Shown one piece after another: positions 1,232-20,000 of a DNA stretch of 20,000 nt. The DNA lies in NCBI GenBank assembly GCA_023150835.1, contig JAKLKB010000043.1, forward strand, positions 53,422-73,421, written 5' to 3'. Every line of letters begins with the position of its first letter. Within the stretch, counting starts at the first letter, position 1. The notes beneath the pieces are model-generated. The model had not been told where the DNA came from. It did no database searches and worked only from the letters and a program-made list of their open reading frames with translations. Made by a program: the position numbers and the translations under genes. The DNA is from Myxococcota bacterium (GTDB taxonomy: Bacteria; Myxococcota_C; UBA6777).

Positions 1232-1393
1232 GACGTAGTGGCCCAAAAAAGCCGTGTTCGCGACGCTTCAAGCGAGAGAGCCGTCTGTGTGAAAAGCTTG
1301 CGATCTTTTCGCCGATACGGGGTCAAGGGGGCCGCGCTAAGGGTGTGGGGTGTGGGGTGAAACCCCACCAAACCATTCAACTGCGGAAGTCCT
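1232..1393 (+). mobile_element. Family-1 MITE-like element, copy A
   Basis: Shares the core AAAAAA-CCGTGTTCGCG-TTCAAGCG-TGAAAA-TTCGCC-GGGGTCAAGGG-GTGGGG..CCCCAC with copies B-D. Right end ACTGCGGAAGTCCT matches the family TIR; left end is degenerate. Confidence 0.75.
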
Positions 1394-3148: not shown

Positions 3149-3312
3149 AGGAGTTACGCAGTCGGATGATCTTGTGGGGCGAGGTACCATACCCCGCCAT
3201 AGAACCCCCTTGACCCCGTGATGGGCGAAAAGCTCACCGTTTTTCAAGCCAACGACTCTGTCACTTGGACGGCCGCGAGCACGGGGGTTTTTTGGCCGAC
3301 TGCGCAAATCCT
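3149..3312 (-). mobile_element. Family-1 MITE-like element, copy B (best-preserved TIRs)
   Basis: AGGAGTTACGCAGTCGG (3149-3165) and CCGACTGCGCAAATCCT (3296-3312) form a 15/17 inverted repeat. The interior is the reverse complement of the family-1 core. Confidence 0.85.
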
Positions 3313-3320
3313 CTCCGCGT

Positions 3321-5270
3321 TTAGGGCGTTTCGATACCGGTGAAATCGCGGCAGATCCCCATCGCTTCGGTCACGATGTCATGTTGTTCGCGTGTCAGCG
3401 TGCGATAAAATCCATCGGAGGCGACACGATAGGCTTCTTCGGGAGTCATACCGATGGCTTCAAGCCGCGCAGCATCTTCGCGGATGGTCTGCTGGACGTG
3501 TTCGCGTAGCTGGGCTTTGGCGTGTTCACGATCGGATTGGCTGTCAAAGATGTTGCCGATAAAAGAAGCGATGGTTCCGCCGATCACAAGGGCCACTCCA
3601 AATGGAGCGCCCACGCCCGTTGCGATCATCGCGGCCCCCACAAGCGCCGCGCCATTGCCGATCACTTCGGCTGCGGCTCCTGCGTTGGGGTTGCTTTGAT
3701 AATCGCCGATGCTCATCGCAAAGCCCAAGCCAGCACCGAGCGGGCCAAGAACCTTGCTTGCGGTACTCGCAAACCCCGCAACAGTAGCGGCTGAGTTCAC
3801 AAACCGCCCAGAGTTGGCCAGATACGTCGCTGCGGCTCCCACGATATCTGCACCAGAAGCCGCTGTTTGGACCATGCTGGTGATCGCAGCGTCCCACTGG
3901 CCTTTTCCAACAGAGTCGATGGTTCCGGCGATGCCAAACACAAGGCCCGCAGACGCAAGCCCCACCCCCAGAGGCGTATTGCCGAGTTCACCAAGCGCCG
4001 CCGTCATCTCCGAAGGACTCAAGAACTGGCCTTGCGCCATCGGCGCAAAGATCGCATGGGCTTGTTGCAACGCCACCCCAAGACTGGTCGCCGCTGAGCC
4101 TGTTCCTGAGACAGTCTCCAACAACGACGGATTTTGCTGGAGTTGCTCGATCAGCGTCGTCATCTGTGCAGCCGCTGCGGCAGGATCTCCGCTCGCTAAT
4201 TGGAGATATTCGTTGGCCGCCGTCCCAAGGGCAGAACCAAGGATCTCCCCGTTGATCGAGGAAAGCTGATCGCGAAACACTTCGCGAAGGCGAGGATCGG
4301 CGTTGACGCTGTTGACCCATTGTGCTGTTTGTGCGCCAAAGCCGGGGGTCGAAGCAAGAGTCCGATATCCGTCCGCAATAAACGAAGCCATCTGTGGTTG
4401 AAACGTTGAATCCGACAGCATCGCTGTTTGGGCTTCGGAGAGCTCGCGTTGCAGGTTTCGGGCAGCTTGTTGTTGTGCATCGTAGAGAGGCTGATGTTCG
4501 CGACGGTATTGTTCGATATAGGCTTGTTGTTGGGTCGGCGTCAGATTGTTGCCAAACGAAGCGATATCACGGGCAAGATCAGCTTCTGCCTGTTTCACAG
4601 CGTCGTTGGCTGATTCGTAGCTCCGTTGCGCATTTTGCAATTCGTTGATGTGCTGCACATTCGCCGGAGGGCCCGGGACAACTGGCGTTGGTGGCGTGTT
4701 TGGTGGTGTGGTCGCAGGCGGTGTTGCCGTCGGCGGCGTAGTCGTCGTGGGTGGCGTCGTGGGTGGAGCTGTCGGTGTGGGTGGAGCTGTCGGTGTGGGT
4801 GGAGCCGTTGGTGTGGGTGGAGCCGTCGGTGTGGGTGGAGCCGTCGGTGTGGCCGTCGGTGTCGCGGTTGGTGTCGCGGTTGGTGTCGCGGTTGGTGTCG
4901 CGGTCGGTGTCGCGGTTGGTGTCGCGGTCGGTGTCGCGGTCGGTGTCGCGGTTGGTGTCGCGGTTGGTGTGGCCGTACTGGGTGCAGAAGTTTGGCGGGA
5001 TTGAAGGCTTTGGGAGAGCTGCTTCGAGAAAAATTGAGCGGTGTTTCGCACGTCACCAAGGCTGTGTTGTGCGGCTTTGCGCAGCCCACCGATCTGCTCG
5101 GAAGACAGGCTTTGGGACGAAGATGGGGGGGGATTTTGTTTGGCTTGTTGAGTGGCTTTCTGAGCTTCGGCAGCTTTTTGGGCTTCCGCAGCACGGCGAG
5201 CTTCGGCAGCTTTTTGGGCTTCCGCAGCACGGCGAGCTTCATCGGATCGAGAAGAAGAAACTTTTGACAT
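3321..5270 (-). CDS. Hypothetical 649-aa protein: low-complexity N-terminus, Pro/Thr repeat, coiled-coil, Gly/Ala-rich hydrophobic C-terminus
   Basis: ATG at 5270 with GGAGG 6 nt upstream. Long ORF, no signal peptide, hydrophobic segments such as GAALVGAAMIATGVGAPFGVALVIGGTIASFIG. Confidence 0.85.
   Translation of the reverse strand: MSKVSSSRSDEARRAAEAQKAAEARRAAEAQKAAEAQKATQQAKQNPPPSSSQSLSSEQIGGLRKAAQHSLGDVRNTAQFFSKQLSQSLQSRQTSAPSTATPTATPTATPTATPTATPTATPTATPTATPTATPTATPTATPTAPPTPTAPPTPTAPPTPTAPPTPTAPPTTPPTTTTPPTATPPATTPPNTPPTPVVPGPPANVQHINELQNAQRSYESANDAVKQAEADLARDIASFGNNLTPTQQQAYIEQYRREHQPLYDAQQQAARNLQRELSEAQTAMLSDSTFQPQMASFIADGYRTLASTPGFGAQTAQWVNSVNADPRLREVFRDQLSSINGEILGSALGTAANEYLQLASGDPAAAAAQMTTLIEQLQQNPSLLETVSGTGSAATSLGVALQQAHAIFAPMAQGQFLSPSEMTAALGELGNTPLGVGLASAGLVFGIAGTIDSVGKGQWDAAITSMVQTAASGADIVGAAATYLANSGRFVNSAATVAGFASTASKVLGPLGAGLGFAMSIGDYQSNPNAGAAAEVIGNGAALVGAAMIATGVGAPFGVALVIGGTIASFIGNIFDSQSDREHAKAQLREHVQQTIREDAARLEAIGMTPEEAYRVASDGFYRTLTREQHDIVTEAMGICRDFTGIETP
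4680..4980 (-). repeat. Intragenic 12-bp (TATP) and 18-bp (TAPPTP) tandem repeats
   Basis: Plus strand shows repeated GGT(T/C)GGTGTCGC and GTCGGTGTGGGTGGAGC units, in frame with the 649-aa protein. Confidence 0.95.
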
Positions 5271-5461: not shown

Positions 5462-5624
5462 GTTGACTTGTTAACAAAAAACCCCGTGTTCGCGCCACTT
5501 CAAGCGGCAGCGCTATCGGTTTGAAAAACGCCTGTTCGCCCCGCCAATGCAGGGTCAAGGGAGCGCGCTCCCTTGTGGGGTGTGGGGTAAAACCCCACAA
5601 AAACCATCGAACTGTGCAAGCCGT
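5462..5624 (+). mobile_element. Family-1 MITE-like element, copy C
   Basis: Family core with hairpins AAGGGAGCGCGCTCCCTT and GTGGGGTAAAACCCCAC. Degenerate right TIR CGAACTGTGCAAGCCGT. Left boundary is approximate. Confidence 0.75.
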
Positions 5625-5642: not shown

Positions 5643-6782
5643 TCACCCGATCCCAAAAGAGCGCATCAGCACCCAATAGAGGGCGATAGCAAGAACAACA
5701 GCGTTGAGGAAGCGTTGCCAGCGCCGTCCATCTTTGGCGAGCAGTAGGCGTTGCAACAGCGGAAAGGCGACCACTACGATCGCGATCTGGCCGATCTCGA
5801 CGCCTAGATTGAAAGAGAACAGGGCAGGCAAAAGCCCTTGGGCTTGGGGATGGATCTTGTCTCGCAGGACATAAGAAAAACCGAAGCCGTGGATCAAGCC
5901 GAACACAGCAGCCATCCACGCTCGAAGTTTCATGGAAGGCGCATCGCGCCAGATATTTTCTGCGGCGATTAGGGCGATAGAAAGAGCGATCACCACTTCG
6001 ACAGGGCGTTCGGGTAGTGCGAGGATTTGAAGGGCACTCAAGATCAACGTGACGCTGTGGCCAAGTGTAAAGGCCGTAATAATCCAGAGCAATTGACCAA
6101 GGCGAGCCACCGCAAACAACAAGACGATCAAAAACAAGACGTGATCGTAGCCGATCCAGATATGCCATATGCCTTCCCAAAGAAAGGCCCCGATCAAGGC
6201 ATGGCCTTGTGGAAGCGTGGATTTCGTCGGTGGGTGGGGCGATGTGGAGGTCGGAGTAGTTGTGGGCGGATCAAAGTGCAGCGTGTATGTTGGGAAAAAC
6301 TGGGAGATGACGGTGCGGCGGGCAGGTTTTCCATCGATCTCGATCTGGACGTAATGGCGATGGCCGCCCTGATCCTCAAGCAAGATCTTGTTTTCGATCA
6401 AGACCGAACCAAGGGGCTTTGTGCAAGCGCGCTTTTGGAAGAACAAGATCCGCCGCCCACCTTGTCCCCAACGCATCTGTTGTTCGTACACGCGGCACAA
6501 AGCGTCGTTGTTACTGATCAAGAGGCGACTTGCGAGATAACGCTCGATCGGATCACGCGCCGCCTCAAGCGATCGCAGCGGGACGCGCTTGGTTTGGGGA
6601 TCTTCGAGTTTGAGATAAGAGCCGACATCTTGGGCGCTCACCGAAAGTCCTACCGAGATATCCGCCTGAGCGGTGTCGATCTTGAGGCGCATCTGCCCGG
6701 GAGAAGTCATGTGTGCTTGCGCATCAGCGGCCCCTCCAAAGAAGACGAGCGCCCCGAGGACAAAAGAAAAAATCTTGATCAT
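5643..6782 (-). CDS. HupE/UreJ-family membrane protein (putative Ni/metal transporter) with N-terminal exported domain
   Basis: Signal peptide ending AQA-H. Motifs GIWHIWIGYDHVLFL, TAFTLGHSVTL, VEVVIALSI, FGLIHGFGF and FNLGVEIGQ. Confidence 0.92.
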   Translation of the reverse strand: MIKIFSFVLGALVFFGGAADAQAHMTSPGQMRLKIDTAQADISVGLSVSAQDVGSYLKLEDPQTKRVPLRSLEAARDPIERYLASRLLISNNDALCRVYEQQMRWGQGGRRILFFQKRACTKPLGSVLIENKILLEDQGGHRHYVQIEIDGKPARRTVISQFFPTYTLHFDPPTTTPTSTSPHPPTKSTLPQGHALIGAFLWEGIWHIWIGYDHVLFLIVLLFAVARLGQLLWIITAFTLGHSVTLILSALQILALPERPVEVVIALSIALIAAENIWRDAPSMKLRAWMAAVFGLIHGFGFSYVLRDKIHPQAQGLLPALFSFNLGVEIGQIAIVVVAFPLLQRLLLAKDGRRWQRFLNAVVLAIALYWVLMRSFGIG

Positions 6783-6784
6783 GT

Positions 6785-7232
6785 AGAACTCACGCAATTG
6801 GTTTGTTGGATGGGGCGCTGCCCCATACGCGCCTTGTTAAGGTGGAAACCTCGTAGAGTCGGTCTTGATCGCCTTTTTTTTTGTTCTCCCCCCCTCAATC
6901 CCCCCGTGAACGGGGGGAAGTTGGAACGGGCAGCGTCTGCATTTCGTGCATACAGCGTGCGTCATGAAAAAACAAAATCCCCGATGCTTCCGACTTTCGC
7001 TCCCTCCCCTGTTCACGGCGACTTTCGCTCCCTCCCCTGTTCACGGGGGAGGGCGGGGTGGGGGGCTTTCCTCCGCTTCACCCAACGCCTATGGGGCGCT
7101 GCCCCAAACCCCGCAAGGGAGCGCGGCTCCCTTAACCCCGTGTTGGCGAAGAGAACACTGTTTTTCACACCAACGACTCTCTCGCTTGATGCCACACGAA
7201 CGCGGGTCTTTTTTTGCAACGGCGTCACTCAA
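6785..7232 (-). mobile_element. Family-1 MITE-like element, copy D, interrupted by a family-2 element
   Basis: TIR-like AGAACTCACGCAATTGG at 6785-6801 has the same 9-nt spacing to TGGGGC as copy B. The family core resumes at 7094-7232. Removing 6824-7104 restores an intact copy. Confidence 0.8.
6824..7093. mobile_element. Family-2 non-autonomous IS4/IS231-like element (270 bp) with 11-bp target-site duplication
   Basis: Ends CATACGCGCCTTGTTAAG and (reverse complement) CATAGGCGTTGGGTGAAG. Flanked by direct repeats GGGCGCTGCCC at 6813-6823 and 7094-7104. Internal 28-bp tandem duplication at 6991-7018/7019-7046. Confidence 0.85.
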
Positions 7233-7233
7233 T

Positions 7234-8559
7234 TCACGGATGCCTTGGGAGGTAGGAGCGCGGGTTGATGGGGTGCTTGTGCAAAAAGAGTCCGAAGTGC
7301 AAGTGAGGCCCCGTGGAGCGGCCCGTCGATCCGATGCTGCCGATACGTTGTCCCGAAGAGACAGGATCTTTGGGCGTTGCAAGGATCTGCGAAAGATGGC
7401 AATACAACGTGCGATAACCACGCGCATGTTCGAGAAGAACCCCCATTCCACACGATCCCATCCATCCTGCGTGCAAGACGACTCCCTCCGCTGCCGCAAA
7501 GACCGGACTTCCAAACGGTGCCACGATATCGATGCCCTGATGAAAGCGCTGTTTCCGATGAAAAGGATCGCTGCGCAAACCAAAACCACTGCTGATCGCG
7601 CCACGTGCAGGCCAACGCAAAAACGAAGTCGGTTCTCGAAAGCGATCGAGGTCTCGCTCCGTAAAGACCAACGGTGGGCGTGTATCGCTGTCCAACGCAT
7701 CTCCTTTGGGCGCGTTGTGCATCGAAGAAGTCGTGGGCGCTGAAGATATCGCAGAGGCCGATGATGTCGATGGTTCAGGGGAGTTCATACGGTAGGTTTG
7801 GGTCAACAGCAAGGAGTTAGGGGGGGGGTGAGTTTGCGCGGTACGGGAGGGCGAGATCGTGCGAGAAGGCGTGAGCCTTGGAGGCGATGGGTGGTATCGA
7901 AGATCAAGAAGCATGATTGTGCGGACGATCCGCAACGAAAGAGATTCGGGGAAGCCTGAGAAGCGGTTGCGATCGCGATCTCCTTCGATCTCAAGCAGAT
8001 GTCGATAGGCTTGCCAAGCGGCTGCCGTCAGACAACGGCTCGGCTGTCCAAGGCTGTTAAGCAAAGAGAACCAGCGTTGTTGTCGCGCAGAAGGCGTATC
8101 GACGGCCAATAACGCACACACCCGCCGCTGAAGCCCAAGTAAAGCTGCTTTACAGATCTTCTCGTGTGCGTGGGCCTTCAAAACGATGCTCTTATCGGTT
8201 GTGTGGGTCTTATCGGTTGTATGGGTCTTATCGGTTGTGTGGATCTTGTCGGTTGTATGGGTCTTGTCGTTTGTGTGGATCTTGTCGTTTGTGTGGATCT
8301 TGTCGTTTGTGTGGGTCTTCAAAACCATGCGGCGACAGACAGCCGAAAGAGGATGAGCAGGAGACAGCGTTTGAGACGGAATAACCGAGGAAGAACGAGC
8401 GGCGGTGTGAGCGGATCGATCATGGGGATAGGCTTTTGTGGAGAGAAGCGGAGCGTTGGGGTGGATGGTGTGCGAAGGCGTACAAGCGGAAGATATCAAC
8501 GCGAAGAAGGCAAGGAAAAGAAAGGCAGGGGAGTTGAAAGAAAGGTGTGACACAAACAT
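7234..8559 (-). CDS. M23-family metallopeptidase, probable lipoprotein
   Basis: C-terminal M23 motifs WPARGAISSGFG, FHQGIDI, YCHLS and GSTGRSTGPHLHF. N-terminal hydrophobic stretch ending ISSAC (lipobox-like). Confidence 0.92.
   Translation of the reverse strand: MFVSHLSFNSPAFLFLAFFALISSACTPSHTIHPNAPLLSTKAYPHDRSAHTAARSSSVIPSQTLSPAHPLSAVCRRMVLKTHTNDKIHTNDKIHTNDKTHTTDKIHTTDKTHTTDKTHTTDKSIVLKAHAHEKICKAALLGLQRRVCALLAVDTPSARQQRWFSLLNSLGQPSRCLTAAAWQAYRHLLEIEGDRDRNRFSGFPESLSLRIVRTIMLLDLRYHPSPPRLTPSRTISPSRTAQTHPPPNSLLLTQTYRMNSPEPSTSSASAISSAPTTSSMHNAPKGDALDSDTRPPLVFTERDLDRFREPTSFLRWPARGAISSGFGLRSDPFHRKQRFHQGIDIVAPFGSPVFAAAEGVVLHAGWMGSCGMGVLLEHARGYRTLYCHLSQILATPKDPVSSGQRIGSIGSTGRSTGPHLHFGLFLHKHPINPRSYLPRHP
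8191..8316 (-). repeat. Seven 18-bp tandem repeats encoding (T/I)HT(N/T)DK
   Basis: Directly visible units, in frame within the M23 gene. Confidence 0.95.
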
Positions 8560-13979: not shown

Positions 13980-16814
13980 ATGGCAGAGCGAGATTGGTTG
14001 ATCGGTAGAGTCCTTGGAAAGTACCGGCTGGAAAAACAGATCGGCGCAGGTGCTTTTGCAAGCATCTACGAAGCGATGCACATCCACTTGCATGTCCCCT
14101 TTGCGATCAAGATCTTGCACCCGGCCTTTGCCAACGAAGACGAAGTCTTACGGCGTTTCTTTCGAGAGGCTCGCGCAGCAAGCCAACTTCAGCACGAAAA
14201 CGTCGTGTTTATCGCAGATTACGATGTCGAAGAAGGCGTCGGCCCCTACATCGTGATGGAATACCTCGAAGGCGACACACTCAAAAAATTCCTGAGCCAA
14301 CACCGCCAACTCCCGTTGGATTTAGTGGGCGAGATCGCACGTCAGATCTGCCTTGCTTTGGGACAAGCCCACCGAAAAAACATCGTCCACCGCGATCTCA
14401 AGCCAGAAAATATCTTCTTGGTGCAACGCGAGATGGGGCGCGTCTTGGTCAAAGTCCTCGACTTTGGCATCGCTCACCTCGGAAAAGTTGCCGACGCCAT
14501 CACAGGTTCGCGCTTGATCGGAACTCCCGTATACATGGCCCCTGAGCAGTTTCGTGGCGTCGCTCAGTCCCCAAGCATCGATATCTACTCCTTTGGCGTC
14601 ATCCTTTACGAGATGCTCACCGGGCAAACTCCCTTTATTGGACACAATGTCCAGCAACTCGGGATCGAACATATCTTGATGCCCGCTCCCGAACTTGCCG
14701 ACGGGTTTCCCCCCGGACTGCGCCAACTCCAAGCCCGCCTTCTCGGAAAAACCCCCGAAGAACGGCCATCAAGCATGGAAGAAGTCTGGATGTTGATGGC
14801 TCCCGCTCTCGATCCCGAAGGGCGCTATCCTCATTGGCATCGCCAAGATCAACACATCTTTACAGGCGCGCTGATGCCCGCTGTTTCGCTCTCTTCTCCC
14901 GAAGCGATCAGCTATCCGCGCATCGATAACGGCAACCGCCATCCGATCCCCGTTTCTGTAAGCGACACCCAAGATCAAGCCCCCCAATCCGTCAACGACA
15001 CACACGACGGACCCGATCAACTACCCGATGCTGCCGCCTTCTCCGAAGATATCCGCCCCACCTCTGTCGGCCCGCTCCCTTCGGGTTCTGCCAGCGATCT
15101 GCTCGCTTCTCTCCGTCCCTCCGAAGAAGAAGACATCTTCGAAGGGGCCGAAACCATGGTCGGCCCCCTGCGCAACCCGCTCTCAGATCATCCAAGCAGC
15201 GGCCAAGTCTACCAAACCCTGCGTATGCCAAGCTACACAGACGATCACGACCTCTCCACCAACGATATCCCAACCACCGAATTTTCCACCGATCTGAACT
15301 TGCCCGTCTACGGCGGTGCAGCGGGCCGAAACCACGCCTCTCCTACCCCGCCACCCAGCCAAGACGAACAAGCCAACAAGAAGGCTCTCGCCCAAAAAAG
15401 CGGCACTTACGCTAGACCTCCCATGCTTCCGGACTTTTTGCAAGCCGATACCAAAGACTCATTCCCACCGCCAACTCGCCCACCCCACCGCTCAGAAAAT
15501 GAACAAGCCCTCTCCGCCGAAGACCTGCTCGACGAAGAGACCCCCAACCCGACGCTTGGGGAGCCGCCTTTGCCCGCAAAACCCCCGATGCTCGGGAAAT
15601 CACCTTTGTCCGAAAAACCCCCGATGCTCGGGAAATCACCTTTGTCCGAAAAACCCCCGATGCTCGGGAAATCACCTTTGTCCGAAAAACCCCCGATGCT
15701 CGGGAAATCACCTTTGTCCGAAAAATCGTCTTTGCTTGAAGAGTCCGACTCCTTCTCTCTCGAAGAAAGCGCCCTTGTCATCGAAGAAGACAAGCCTCCC
15801 CCAAGCGCCCCCCATCTTGCCGCCCTGCGCGAAGCCCAAGACCTTGATCTTGTGATCCACGATATGGGCGATCAACTCTGGGAAGATCACGATCACGAAG
15901 ACGCCGTCGGACCTGAGATCCCGATCAAGCGGGTCCCACAGATGACCAACGGCAGTGCAGACGATGTTCCGCAACTGACCGAGATATCCACGCACGCACA
16001 TCGCCATGCCCCTGACAACCCCGATGAAGATAGCCTGCAAGTGACCGAGATATCGATGCACTCGAATTATGCGATGGGCGGGTTCTCTCCCGCCCCTGCC
16101 TTCGCCACTTCGGCCAGCTTTCCCGCTCCGCCCAACGCACGTGTCTCTTCCGACTTTTCCCAACTCTCTACCGTCCGCACGCGCAATCCCCTAAGTACCC
16201 CTCCCCCCAACGATACAGTCGCCGAACTCGATATCCTCCCCTCCCCCACCCGCAGCGCCCCACCGCGAAATGTCCCACCACCCAAGATCCCGCTCACCGT
16301 CGGTGTTGCCGGCCTCCCATCCACTCGCGTGTACGCAGACACCACCCCCGACCCACACGATCCACACGATTGGCAGCGTGAACGCCTTCCCTCCGTCCTT
16401 CGGCCCGTTTGGGATTTCTATCGACGCATGAACCCTCTCGAACGCCGTCTCCTGATGATGGTTTGGGTTGGTGTGGTCTTGGTGATCTTGAGCGTCCTTT
16501 GGCTGCTTTGGCCCGAAGTGTCTCCTCCATCCAAACCCGAGCCACCCCCTCGTGCGCGCATCACCCGCCCCAATCAAGAGATCGAGATCCGTTTCATCTC
16601 GGGCTTGATCGGCCGACAACCCATCAAAGTCTTCAGCGAAAATGGCCGCTATCTCGGAACGACGCCCATGTCCGTTCGCGGACGCCCACAAAAAGTCATC
16701 CGCTATCGCCTCGAACCTTCCGATCCCAACGAACGCCGCTATCAAACCACACAATGCGATATCCTGTTCGATCCCAACAAAACTCAGATCACCCTCGAAC
16801 TCACACCACGCTAA
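13980..16814 (+). CDS. Hanks-type Ser/Thr protein kinase with long Pro-rich linker, one TM helix and a PEGA-like C-terminal domain
   Basis: IGAGAFASIY, FAIKIL, RFFREA, VHRDLKPENIF, VLDFGIA, GTPVYMAPEQ and DIYSFGVILYEMLTG. TM segment LLMMVWVGVVLVILSVLWLLW; YLGTTPM near the C-terminus. Confidence 0.96.
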   Translation: MAERDWLIGRVLGKYRLEKQIGAGAFASIYEAMHIHLHVPFAIKILHPAFANEDEVLRRFFREARAASQLQHENVVFIADYDVEEGVGPYIVMEYLEGDTLKKFLSQHRQLPLDLVGEIARQICLALGQAHRKNIVHRDLKPENIFLVQREMGRVLVKVLDFGIAHLGKVADAITGSRLIGTPVYMAPEQFRGVAQSPSIDIYSFGVILYEMLTGQTPFIGHNVQQLGIEHILMPAPELADGFPPGLRQLQARLLGKTPEERPSSMEEVWMLMAPALDPEGRYPHWHRQDQHIFTGALMPAVSLSSPEAISYPRIDNGNRHPIPVSVSDTQDQAPQSVNDTHDGPDQLPDAAAFSEDIRPTSVGPLPSGSASDLLASLRPSEEEDIFEGAETMVGPLRNPLSDHPSSGQVYQTLRMPSYTDDHDLSTNDIPTTEFSTDLNLPVYGGAAGRNHASPTPPPSQDEQANKKALAQKSGTYARPPMLPDFLQADTKDSFPPPTRPPHRSENEQALSAEDLLDEETPNPTLGEPPLPAKPPMLGKSPLSEKPPMLGKSPLSEKPPMLGKSPLSEKPPMLGKSPLSEKSSLLEESDSFSLEESALVIEEDKPPPSAPHLAALREAQDLDLVIHDMGDQLWEDHDHEDAVGPEIPIKRVPQMTNGSADDVPQLTEISTHAHRHAPDNPDEDSLQVTEISMHSNYAMGGFSPAPAFATSASFPAPPNARVSSDFSQLSTVRTRNPLSTPPPNDTVAELDILPSPTRSAPPRNVPPPKIPLTVGVAGLPSTRVYADTTPDPHDPHDWQRERLPSVLRPVWDFYRRMNPLERRLLMMVWVGVVLVILSVLWLLWPEVSPPSKPEPPPRARITRPNQEIEIRFISGLIGRQPIKVFSENGRYLGTTPMSVRGRPQKVIRYRLEPSDPNERRYQTTQCDILFDPNKTQITLELTPR
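15579..15722 (+). repeat. Four identical 36-bp tandem repeats encoding KPPMLGKSPLSE
   Basis: AAACCCCCGATGCTCGGGAAATCACCTTTGTCCGAA x4, preceded by one degenerate unit. Confidence 0.97.
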
Positions 16815-16856: not shown

Positions 16857-16966
16857 ACGAAATCCGAATGATGTATACACAAAAGAGAGTACGTAGACGC
16901 CCTATTCTTGGGCAGTCACAGCGGGCTACCCCTACGTTTTACGATCACGCACCCTGCGGATTTCGT
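16857..16966. mobile_element. Family-3 element: 110 bp, 10-bp TIRs, degenerate GTAG REP cargo
   Basis: ACGAAATCCG (16857-16866) and CGGATTTCGT (16957-16966) are a perfect inverted repeat. Interior 16893-16940 is a diverged copy of 1051-1098. Flanks read CTCAC and CTCAG. Confidence 0.7.
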
Positions 16967-19695: not shown

Positions 19696-19873
19696 CGTGC
19701 TTCTTATCCCATCCATACGAAAAAAAGGCATCCCCCCACATCCTTTTCGGGGCTTGCCAAAAGAGGCGCACAATGTGTTTCTTGGGAGGATTCTTGGCAA
19801 GTGGCCCCCACTCTCCTGTTTTTGTGATGCGTTCTGTTTTTGTGATGCGTCCTGTTTTTGTGGGGCGCTGCCC

Positions 19874-20000
19874 CATACGCGCCTTGTTAAGCGGAGGAAA
19901 GCCCCCCACCCCGCCCTCCCCCGTGAACAGGGGAGGGAGCGAAAGTCGGAAGCATCGGGGATTTTGTTTTTTCATGACGCACGCTGTATGCACGAAATGC
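19874..20000. mobile_element. Family-2 IS4/IS231-like element, second copy (truncated by the window edge)
   Basis: GGGCGCTGCCC (19863-19873) followed by CATACGCGCCTTGTTAAG. 19889-20000 is the reverse complement of 6939-7078, identical except for the 28-bp duplication. Confidence 0.85.

Follow-up and report, generated by a model that had tools for sequence, protein, structure and literature searches.

A hallmark of the IS4 family of insertion sequences (ISs) is that insertion duplicates approximately one helical turn of DNA, whereas Table 1 of PMC2266710 gives related emerging families 4-6 bp. The same source (Table 1 and section 6) describes the IS231 subgroup of this family as having ends of the form CAT-------AA--TAA---, direct repeats of 10-12 bp and a clear target specificity, and reports it, as of 2008, almost exclusively from the Bacillus cereus group. 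IS231A itself is listed with an 11-bp target-site duplication and the target GGGNNNNNCCC (PMC2577343 Table 1, citing Hallet et al. 1994), and the ISH8 subgroup is described as having CAT ends and 10-bp direct repeats without target specificity (PMC2266710). Here we describe a 270-bp element from an uncultured Myxococcota lineage that carries the insertion signature of IS231A. It lies at 6824..7093 (+ strand) of the window, i.e., the whole 20,000-nucleotide stretch analysed (G000:C199:53422-73421, from a 7.56-Mb, 93%-complete genome in 239 contigs), and it belongs to a family of miniature inverted-repeat transposable elements (MITEs) that we call MITE-A. We consider it likely that this element derives from an IS of the IS4 family by miniaturisation and lacks genes of its own, that the IS was IS231A-like, that the element moved in trans, and that it targets hairpins resembling repetitive extragenic palindromic (REP) sequences.

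The window copy is bounded by 18-bp terminal inverted repeats: CATACGCGCCTTGTTAAG on the left (6824..6841, + strand), which starts with CAT and is the commonest variant in the genome, and CATAGGCGTTGGGTGAAG on the right, read inward (7076..7093, - strand), which is one base from the common variant CATAGGCGTTAGGTGAAG. Directly outside these ends lie the two copies of an 11-bp target-site duplication of GGG-N5-CCC type, GGGCGCTGCCC, at 6813..6823 and 7094..7104. The insertion splits the hairpin of one copy (copy D, 6786-7238) of a dispersed host repeat that we call family-1. The outer part of copy D, up to the split hairpin, is at 6786..6823 (+), and its inner part is at 7094..7238 (+) and holds the other hairpin half, the CAAGGGAGCGCGGCTCCCTT palindrome and a long stem with a T-run after it; a short TGA/ATGA repeat leaves the far boundary of this part uncertain by 3-4 bp. 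When 6824-7104 was deleted by script, the remaining sequence was colinear with three other family-1 copies of the window, at approximately 1240-1380 (-), 3165-3300 (+) and 5470-5610 (-), as well as with the consensus built from 150 family-1 copies across the genome. A first-pass annotation, made from the letters of the window alone, had placed the element, its exact duplication and the split hairpin at these same positions and had claimed that removal restores a family-1 copy, all of which we confirm. It had also reported paired internal palindromes, and these are present at 6900..6917 (CCCCCCGTGAACGGGGGG) and 7032..7051 (CTCCCCTGTTCACGGGGGAG).

Most MITE-A copies are approximately 240 bp, and the window copy is longer because it contains a perfect 28-bp tandem duplication (6991-7018 and 7019-7046, i.e., 6991..7046, + strand), which only one close relative in the genome, on contig C185, shares. 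The overlapping open reading frames (ORFs) of the element have no family match, and the spurious ORF that runs over it (6027-7268) has no match in Pfam. Folding the element with its duplications as DNA gave z = -2.98, a modest value expected of an inverted-repeat element. A promoter and terminator scan of 6600-7400 returned none of either, and Rfam at gathering thresholds returned no matches in the whole window. A second, partial MITE-A copy, inverted relative to the first, begins at 19874 and is ended by the contig and window end (19874..20000, +); the target 11-mer GGGCGCTGCCC adjoins it at 19863..19873, and its right-hand module bears a "left-type" end.

Genome-wide, a regular expression for the end with up to one substitution finds 303 MITE-A termini, corresponding to approximately 150 elements. 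The ends are 18-bp imperfect inverted repeats with two main variants, CATACGCGCCTTGTTAAG and CATAGGCGTTAGGT(G/T)AAG, and the most frequent exact forms are CATACGCGCCTTGTTAAG (122 termini), CATAGGCGTTAGGTGAAG (63) and CATAGGCGTTAGGTTAAG (53). This abundance is far beyond chance: the exact degenerate end pattern occurs 265 times in the host genome (G000) and 47 times in a same-genus genome, but never in four other genomes of the class, and its reversed control has no match anywhere. Using the 270-bp element as a BLAST query against the genome produced 280 alignments, and contig ends account for many of these. Across the copies compared, CAT is a sharp boundary of homology. Pairing inward-facing neighbour ends gave 69 pairs, most spanning 160-280 bp, and a typical copy has no transposase gene. 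Alignment of 63 pairs revealed a single architecture in which left and right inner modules are exchangeable, with small tandem expansions and with internal deletions down to 161 bp. MITE-A thus shows several of the features by which MITEs are recognised: small size, no coding capacity, terminal inverted repeats, a duplication of fixed length and dispersed copies. Rare longer derivatives bounded by MITE-A ends, of 661 bp (C169:29265-29925) and 893 bp (C117:9074-9966), hold a (CACGGAAAG)n-type minisatellite, and the 893-bp one is flanked by a perfect 11-bp duplication.

An exact 11-bp direct duplication flanks 46 of the 69 end pairs, and six more pairs differ at a single base. The rest comprise one pair with 10 bp, five that differ at two bases, ten that differ at three or more (some of them clearly chimeric, with ends from two elements) and one truncated where its contig stops. 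A full flank is available for 302 termini, of which 268 lie directly against GGG-N5-CCC, with 1.6-1.8 bits of information at the six G/C positions, and the wider preference is (G)TGGGG[C/T]NNN[G/A]CCCCA(C). Occupancy is also higher where the next bases of the stem pair: the genome contains 3112 GGG-N5-CCC 11-mers, of which 245 of 1450 are occupied where the fourth bases pair and 21 of 1662 otherwise. Among the duplicated 11-mers are some with asymmetric loops, e.g., GGGTTTCACCC, which are repeated directly and never as the complement. Hairpin symmetry therefore cannot explain the duplications.

These properties can be compared with a real IS231 element, an annotated 1655-bp IS231F-family copy on plasmid NC_010076. 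It has ends CATGCCCATCAACTTAAG and an 11-bp duplication (12 bp at a second copy), and its ends have CAT and TTAAG at positions 14-18 in common with those of MITE-A, with 11 of 18 bases agreeing in all. In terms of the published IS231 description (PMC2266710), MITE-A has the initial CAT and, in its left-type and TTAAG right-type ends, the TAA at positions 15-17, though not the AA at positions 11-12, and its 11-bp direct repeats and GGG-N5-CCC specificity (268/302) fall within the stated 10-12 bp and clear target preference. The ISH8 description fits in its CAT but departs from MITE-A in repeat length and specificity. The first-pass annotation had proposed a non-autonomous element with CAT-N10-T(T/G)AAG ends, a GGG-N5-CCC target and an IS231A-like mode of insertion, in a lineage probably distant from Bacillus. 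It had staked this on other copies also having duplications of approximately 11 bp and on CAT being the homology boundary, and the genome-wide data bear it out on each of these points.

Approximately nine in ten MITE-A termini lie in the hairpins of two abundant repeat families, with no orientation bias. Sorted by flank, the 303 termini comprise 80 facing the inner side of family-1 and 111 facing a TTTGTGGGG-type outer side, 60 and 22 facing the two sides of family-2 (the other main landing site), 29 elsewhere and one with too short a flank. Uninterrupted family-1 hairpins hold one 11-mer and occupied ones hold two. In addition, two pairs of elements are spaced by exactly one 11-mer, as expected if a duplicated target is hit again.

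Family-1 has 592 BLAST matches across the genome and a conserved core of approximately 135 bp, comprising a hairpin near one end, a CAAGGGAGCGCG...CCCTTG palindrome, and a long stem with a T-run after it. The hairpin covaries: in 347 copies, its fourth stem pair is C-G in 147, T-A in 121 and unpaired in 14, with 65 copies not matching the motif. Family-2 has 732 matches and is a palindrome framed by GTAG...CTAC with the core GGGCAGCC-N6-GGCTGCCC; its window copies are at 1023-1109, 1130-1216 and 16865-16951. We saw no terminal inverted repeats in family-1, and it has no Rfam match. With hundreds of short, extragenic, G+C-rich palindromes each, as in REP sequences and REPINs, both families look REP-like rather than MITE-like. 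Candidate identities for family-1 are a structured RNA, a terminator module and a REP-like element. It had been annotated as "another MITE" into which the element had inserted; insertion into the hairpin of a dispersed repeat is correct, but calling that repeat a MITE is not justified because no inverted ends were seen.

Two further observations concern these host repeats. A 254-aa ORF resembling REP-associated tyrosine transposases (RAYTs) is present on contig C113 (L093, G000:C113 1450-2214, minus strand). It scores 58 bits against NF047646, below the cut-off of 80, and its middle is broken by an (IGQAQ)n tandem repeat. Separately, a multi-copy IS4-family IS is unassembled at contig ends C117:1-140, C169:1-140 and the last 140 bases of C161, where the last 29-30 transposase residues match NF033590 and the IS end is GCTTTCTCTTGGACACTT. 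At two of these three contig ends it sits at the central CAAGGG... palindrome of family-1, and in one sequencing run (X15) the same IS is found at copy D of the window, with a loose end at window position 7119. This GCTTTCTCTTGGACACTT-ended IS would be a second invader of family-1.

Occupancy differs between congeners whose flanks are 90-95% identical. At the window locus, both flanking genes are matched in the same-genus genome G001, at 90-93% identity, and there the two genes abut directly: the block of approximately 450 bp from 6786 to ~7238, comprising copy D and MITE-A, is missing. These genes encode, on the downstream flank, a HupE/UreJ-domain protein with a signal peptide (5643..6785, -) and, on the upstream flank, an M23 peptidase (7234..8559, -) whose stop codon now lies inside the inserted block. 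In G001 the M23-peptidase stop overlaps the HupE/UreJ start (ATGA). The comparison shows that family-1 comes and goes as a unit. At a second locus, on contig C6, G000 has MITE-A where G001 has a family-1 copy with an uninterrupted hairpin, the orthology here being good but not perfect, with the hairpin sequence itself differing in G001. At a third locus, on contig C8, a whole nest of approximately 600 bp is missing from G001. Empty sites, on which the first-pass annotation had also made its reading depend, therefore exist.

The family-1 block in G000 sits exactly at the ATGA overlap (window 6782-6785 and 7234-7242 against L057 280-300) and supplies a new TGA; both flanking frames are intact, with ...RHP* in both genomes. 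In a third congener, G002, the intergenic position of the window (L058, G002:C4 ~2640-2880) is taken by a tandem array of ~60-bp hairpins, GGGGCGGCCACGGAGGGCCGCCC..., so this spot collects different repeats in different species. Public reads were uninformative on empty alleles: in short-k contigs from 4 of 24 runs, no contig joined across the element or the nest, and the left-flank contigs end 16 bases into the element, an overlap too short to count as bridging. Runs with the window locus came from activated sludge, sludge, wastewater, aquatic, bioreactor and soil metagenomes in nine studies, one of them possibly the source of the genome itself.

The match to IS231A and to the IS4 family in general suggests both an enzyme class and a cut-and-paste chemistry for MITE-A. 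A DDE transposase supplied in trans would bind the 18-bp CAT-initiated ends, excise the element and paste it into a target cut at the outer Gs of GGG-N5-CCC with an 11-bp stagger, and repair of the stagger would leave the 11-mer duplicated. The targets would be the hundreds of genomic hairpins of the form (G)TGGGG[C/T]-NNN-[G/A]CCCCA(C) supplied by the two intergenic repeat families. Most surviving copies would be nested in these hairpins because the hairpins both fit the motif and tolerate insertions. In the window, family-1 would have arrived first, between the M23-peptidase and HupE/UreJ genes, and MITE-A would have entered its hairpin second. The notion that a repeat family serves as a "safe haven", proposed in the first-pass annotation, stands insofar as repeat families are the main landing sites; the haven itself may be no more than the target motif combined with selection against insertions in genes.

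Several results weigh against this account. The first-pass annotation had advised looking for an IS4-family transposase bounded by the same ends, and none appeared in the host genome, its five relatives, or the metagenome and viral scans. End pairs longer than 280 bp (343, 661, 893, 1035 and 1653 bp) hold no transposase: their contents are minisatellites, a YebC-like gene between two separate elements, and unrelated DNA. A 17-kb pairing of ends proved to be two unrelated elements, and the solo ends at C214:30458, C235:15075, C99:84544, C194:41127 and C9:25877 lead into ordinary genes. The five PF01609 loci of G000 (one IS982-like, one IS4_2-type with 15-bp CT-type ends, one IS1182/IS5-like and two broken) all have other ends, none of them CAT. 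Thirteen PF01609 loci in the relatives lack MITE-A ends even with four mismatches allowed, and G001, which bears MITE-A, has no PF01609 or NF033592 match. Neither NF033592 nor NF033590 has a match above cut-off in G000 or G001, and three contig-end transposase fragments in G000 belong to a different IS. Searching the six genomes of the phylum with the IS231F transposase at E<=1e-5 found nothing, and tblastn against G000 gave nothing better than E=5.9.

Scans for the ends beyond these genomes gave the same result. Genome contigs yielded at least 28 loci, those listed being copies in one metagenome-assembled genome and single chance matches in three unrelated ones; metagenome contigs yielded 15 loci, which were MITE copies in one metagenome and otherwise chance matches; and viral contigs yielded two chance matches in coding sequences, then none. 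The absence of the transposase from the assembly is nonetheless weak evidence, given the fragmentation of the bin, in which another IS4-family IS, with different ends, can be seen to have remained unassembled. Two features of the elements themselves also count against the account. Positions 11-12 of the ends read TT or AG instead of the AA in the published IS231 consensus. In addition, no two assembled full copies are >=99% identical (the best pair reaches 98.75%, and the median nearest neighbour among 61 copies is 95.6%), so the family may be old. It should be noted here that near-identical copies would collapse in a short-read assembly, and that approximately 100 contig ends of G000 fall within MITE-A or host repeats.

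The genus does contain an intact CAT-ended IS. G002 carries a 1392-bp IS4-family IS (L018, G002:C12 971-2362) with ends CATCTGTTCCAACTAATT and a 10-bp duplication, GCCTCTGTGC, within a G+C-rich hairpin repeat, GGGCGGGC-CTCTGT-GCCCGCCC. Its 429-aa transposase has a YREK motif and passes NF033592 (144.7 bits), which is also the best NCBIfam model for IS231F (353 bits), and it is approximately 30% identical to the IS231F transposase over 75 residues. Beside it, at 565-760, is a 196-bp mini-derivative with the same ends and the same duplication. The ends of this IS agree with those of MITE-A at only 8 of 18 positions, a further point against a close tie, and the IS was not found in G000 by tblastn; BLASTN of it against MITE-A copies and against G000 gave nothing meaningful. 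G000 does, however, contain a second CAT-ended mini-family, MITE-B, of 192-311 bp with ends CATTTGATCCAAC(T/G)AATT, in which 16 of 18 bases agree with the ends of the G002 IS. Its copies (C109:178-488, C180:2650-2960, C120:14957-15265 and C197:32434-32625) lie within family-2 hairpins, and a 9-bp duplication, CCACAGGGG, flanks one clean copy. G000 has no transposase that matches them. Together with the IS and its mini-derivative, MITE-B indicates that CAT-ended, hairpin-targeting IS4 elements that shed mini-derivatives circulate in the genus.

MITE-A could instead belong to a different subgroup of the IS4 family (ISH8-like, like the G002 IS, or undescribed), with the target motif due to shared family ancestry or to convergence, and we regard this as a serious possibility, albeit at somewhat worse than even odds. 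Only one intact CAT-ended IS, that of G002, was observed in the genus; it makes 10-bp duplications, the value given for ISH8 (PMC2266710), and its transposase is distant from IS231F. In addition, the consensus AA is missing, and the IS231 subgroup was reported in 2008 almost only from the Bacillus cereus group (PMC2266710). However, MITE-A duplications are 11 bp, not 10, and MITE-A is highly specific where ISH8 is described as having no target specificity (PMC2266710); moreover, MITE-A combines TAA at positions 15-17 with the exact IS231A target motif. Its IS4 subgroup membership is unproven because no transposase bounded by its ends was found, so the first-pass label of "IS231/ISH8-type" holds for ends, duplication and target that are IS231-like, whereas the subgroup is only a candidate assignment. 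It is also conceivable, though we think it unlikely, that MITE-A is a fossil whose transposase has been lost from the lineage, leaving immobile copies as neutral passengers in the repeats. Perfect duplications in two thirds of pairs, the differing occupancy between such similar congeners and the high uniformity of the termini (122 with an identical 18-mer) all argue against this. A fossil would account for the lack of a cognate transposase in G000 and five relatives, the lack of full-length copies at >=99% identity, the decayed or chimeric flanks of 22 of the 69 pairs, and the many internal-deletion and tandem-expansion derivatives, but a multi-copy IS could simply be unassembled in a 93%-complete, 239-contig bin with ~100 contig ends in repeats.

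The two remaining explanations fare worse. One is a mover from outside the IS4 family, e.g., another DDE enzyme or a recombinase that happens to give 11-bp duplications, for which one could point to the unseen enzyme and to the RAYT-like ORF and other unassembled ISs in the genome. To our knowledge, tyrosine HUH transposases make no duplications, which counts against that source. Duplications of about one helical turn are the IS4-family hallmark, as opposed to 4-6 bp in the related emerging families (PMC2266710), and a real IS231F copy likewise begins with CAT and has TTAAG at positions 14-18; we regard an outside mover as very improbable. The other does away with transposition and attributes flank identity to hairpin symmetry or to recombination between repeats. 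The sites are indeed palindromic hairpins in repeat families, so flanks are alike everywhere, but symmetry predicts reverse-complement flanks and what we see is asymmetric loops repeated directly, with one 11-mer in uninterrupted hairpins, two in occupied ones and a homology boundary that is sharp at CAT. We give this explanation almost no chance of being correct.

A more ambitious reading, which we consider distinctly doubtful, goes beyond an IS231A-like origin for MITE-A: IS231A-type target recognition (11-bp stagger, GGG-N5-CCC) may be an ancient trait of an IS4 lineage that extends far beyond Bacillus, and here it may have built a repeat ecosystem with three layers. The landing pads would be REP-like hairpin families, renewable and perhaps propagated by a RAYT-like enzyme; two or more families of CAT-ended mini-elements would colonise these pads; and the driving transposase would be off the chromosome or present in some strains only. 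Each insertion would regenerate two targets, allowing elements to stack.

These results extend the IS231A insertion signature from the Bacillus cereus group, to which it was reported in 2008 to be nearly restricted, to an uncultured Myxococcota lineage in activated-sludge metagenomes, and the ~150 insertions are a clean natural data set on how an IS4-type enzyme reads a palindromic target. They also have practical consequences. One repeat family can offer insertion sites to another, which bears on the annotation of intergenic regions and on how presence/absence differences between metagenome-assembled genomes are interpreted, and the poor assembly of G000 is largely due to such repeats, as ~100 contig ends fall in them. 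The window also contains three tandem-repeat arrays (4699-4980, 8172-8333 and 15548-15736) whose periods are 12/18, 18 and 36 bp, respectively; two or more of the arrays fall within long ORFs, and they are unrelated to MITE-A.

Among described systems, IS231A and its subgroup are closest to MITE-A, having in common with it, as far as the published tables go, CAT ends, TTAAG or TAA within positions 14-18, a duplication length of 11 bp and the target motif GGG-N5-CCC. They differ in being Bacillus elements of 1.4-5.4 kb, whereas MITE-A is 240-270 bp and lives in a small uncultured phylum (six species genomes only in GTDB). The G002 IS and its 196-bp MITE resemble MITE-A in their CAT ends and G+C-rich hairpin target and provide an autonomous/miniature pair within the genus, but they differ in the 10-bp duplication, in ends that agree at 8 of 18 positions and in not being found in G000. 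In the literature on MITEs in Myxococcota and on IS4-family MITEs we found nothing on MITE-A. MIC231 cassettes, as described in PMC6199540, are like MITE-A in being non-autonomous, with IS231-type ends, modular inner parts and presumed mobilisation in trans, and several MITE-A inner modules likewise share the same ends; the cassettes are 0.7-3 kb with passenger genes, however, while MITE-A is approximately 240 bp, gene-less and present in ~150 copies. ISs that target REP sequences (ISPpu9/10, ISPa11, ISPsy8, ISRm19, ISRm22 and IS1397) also use extragenic palindromic repeats as hot spots (PMC1525189), and one of them, ISRm22, is listed as an IS4-family member with marked target conservation (PMC2266710). 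Those ISs are autonomous and mostly of other families, whereas the invader here is a non-autonomous mini-element that has an IS231A-type motif and uses two different host repeat families. The MITE-A system is thus not new in kind, as MITEs, MIC231 cassettes and REP-targeting ISs are already known.

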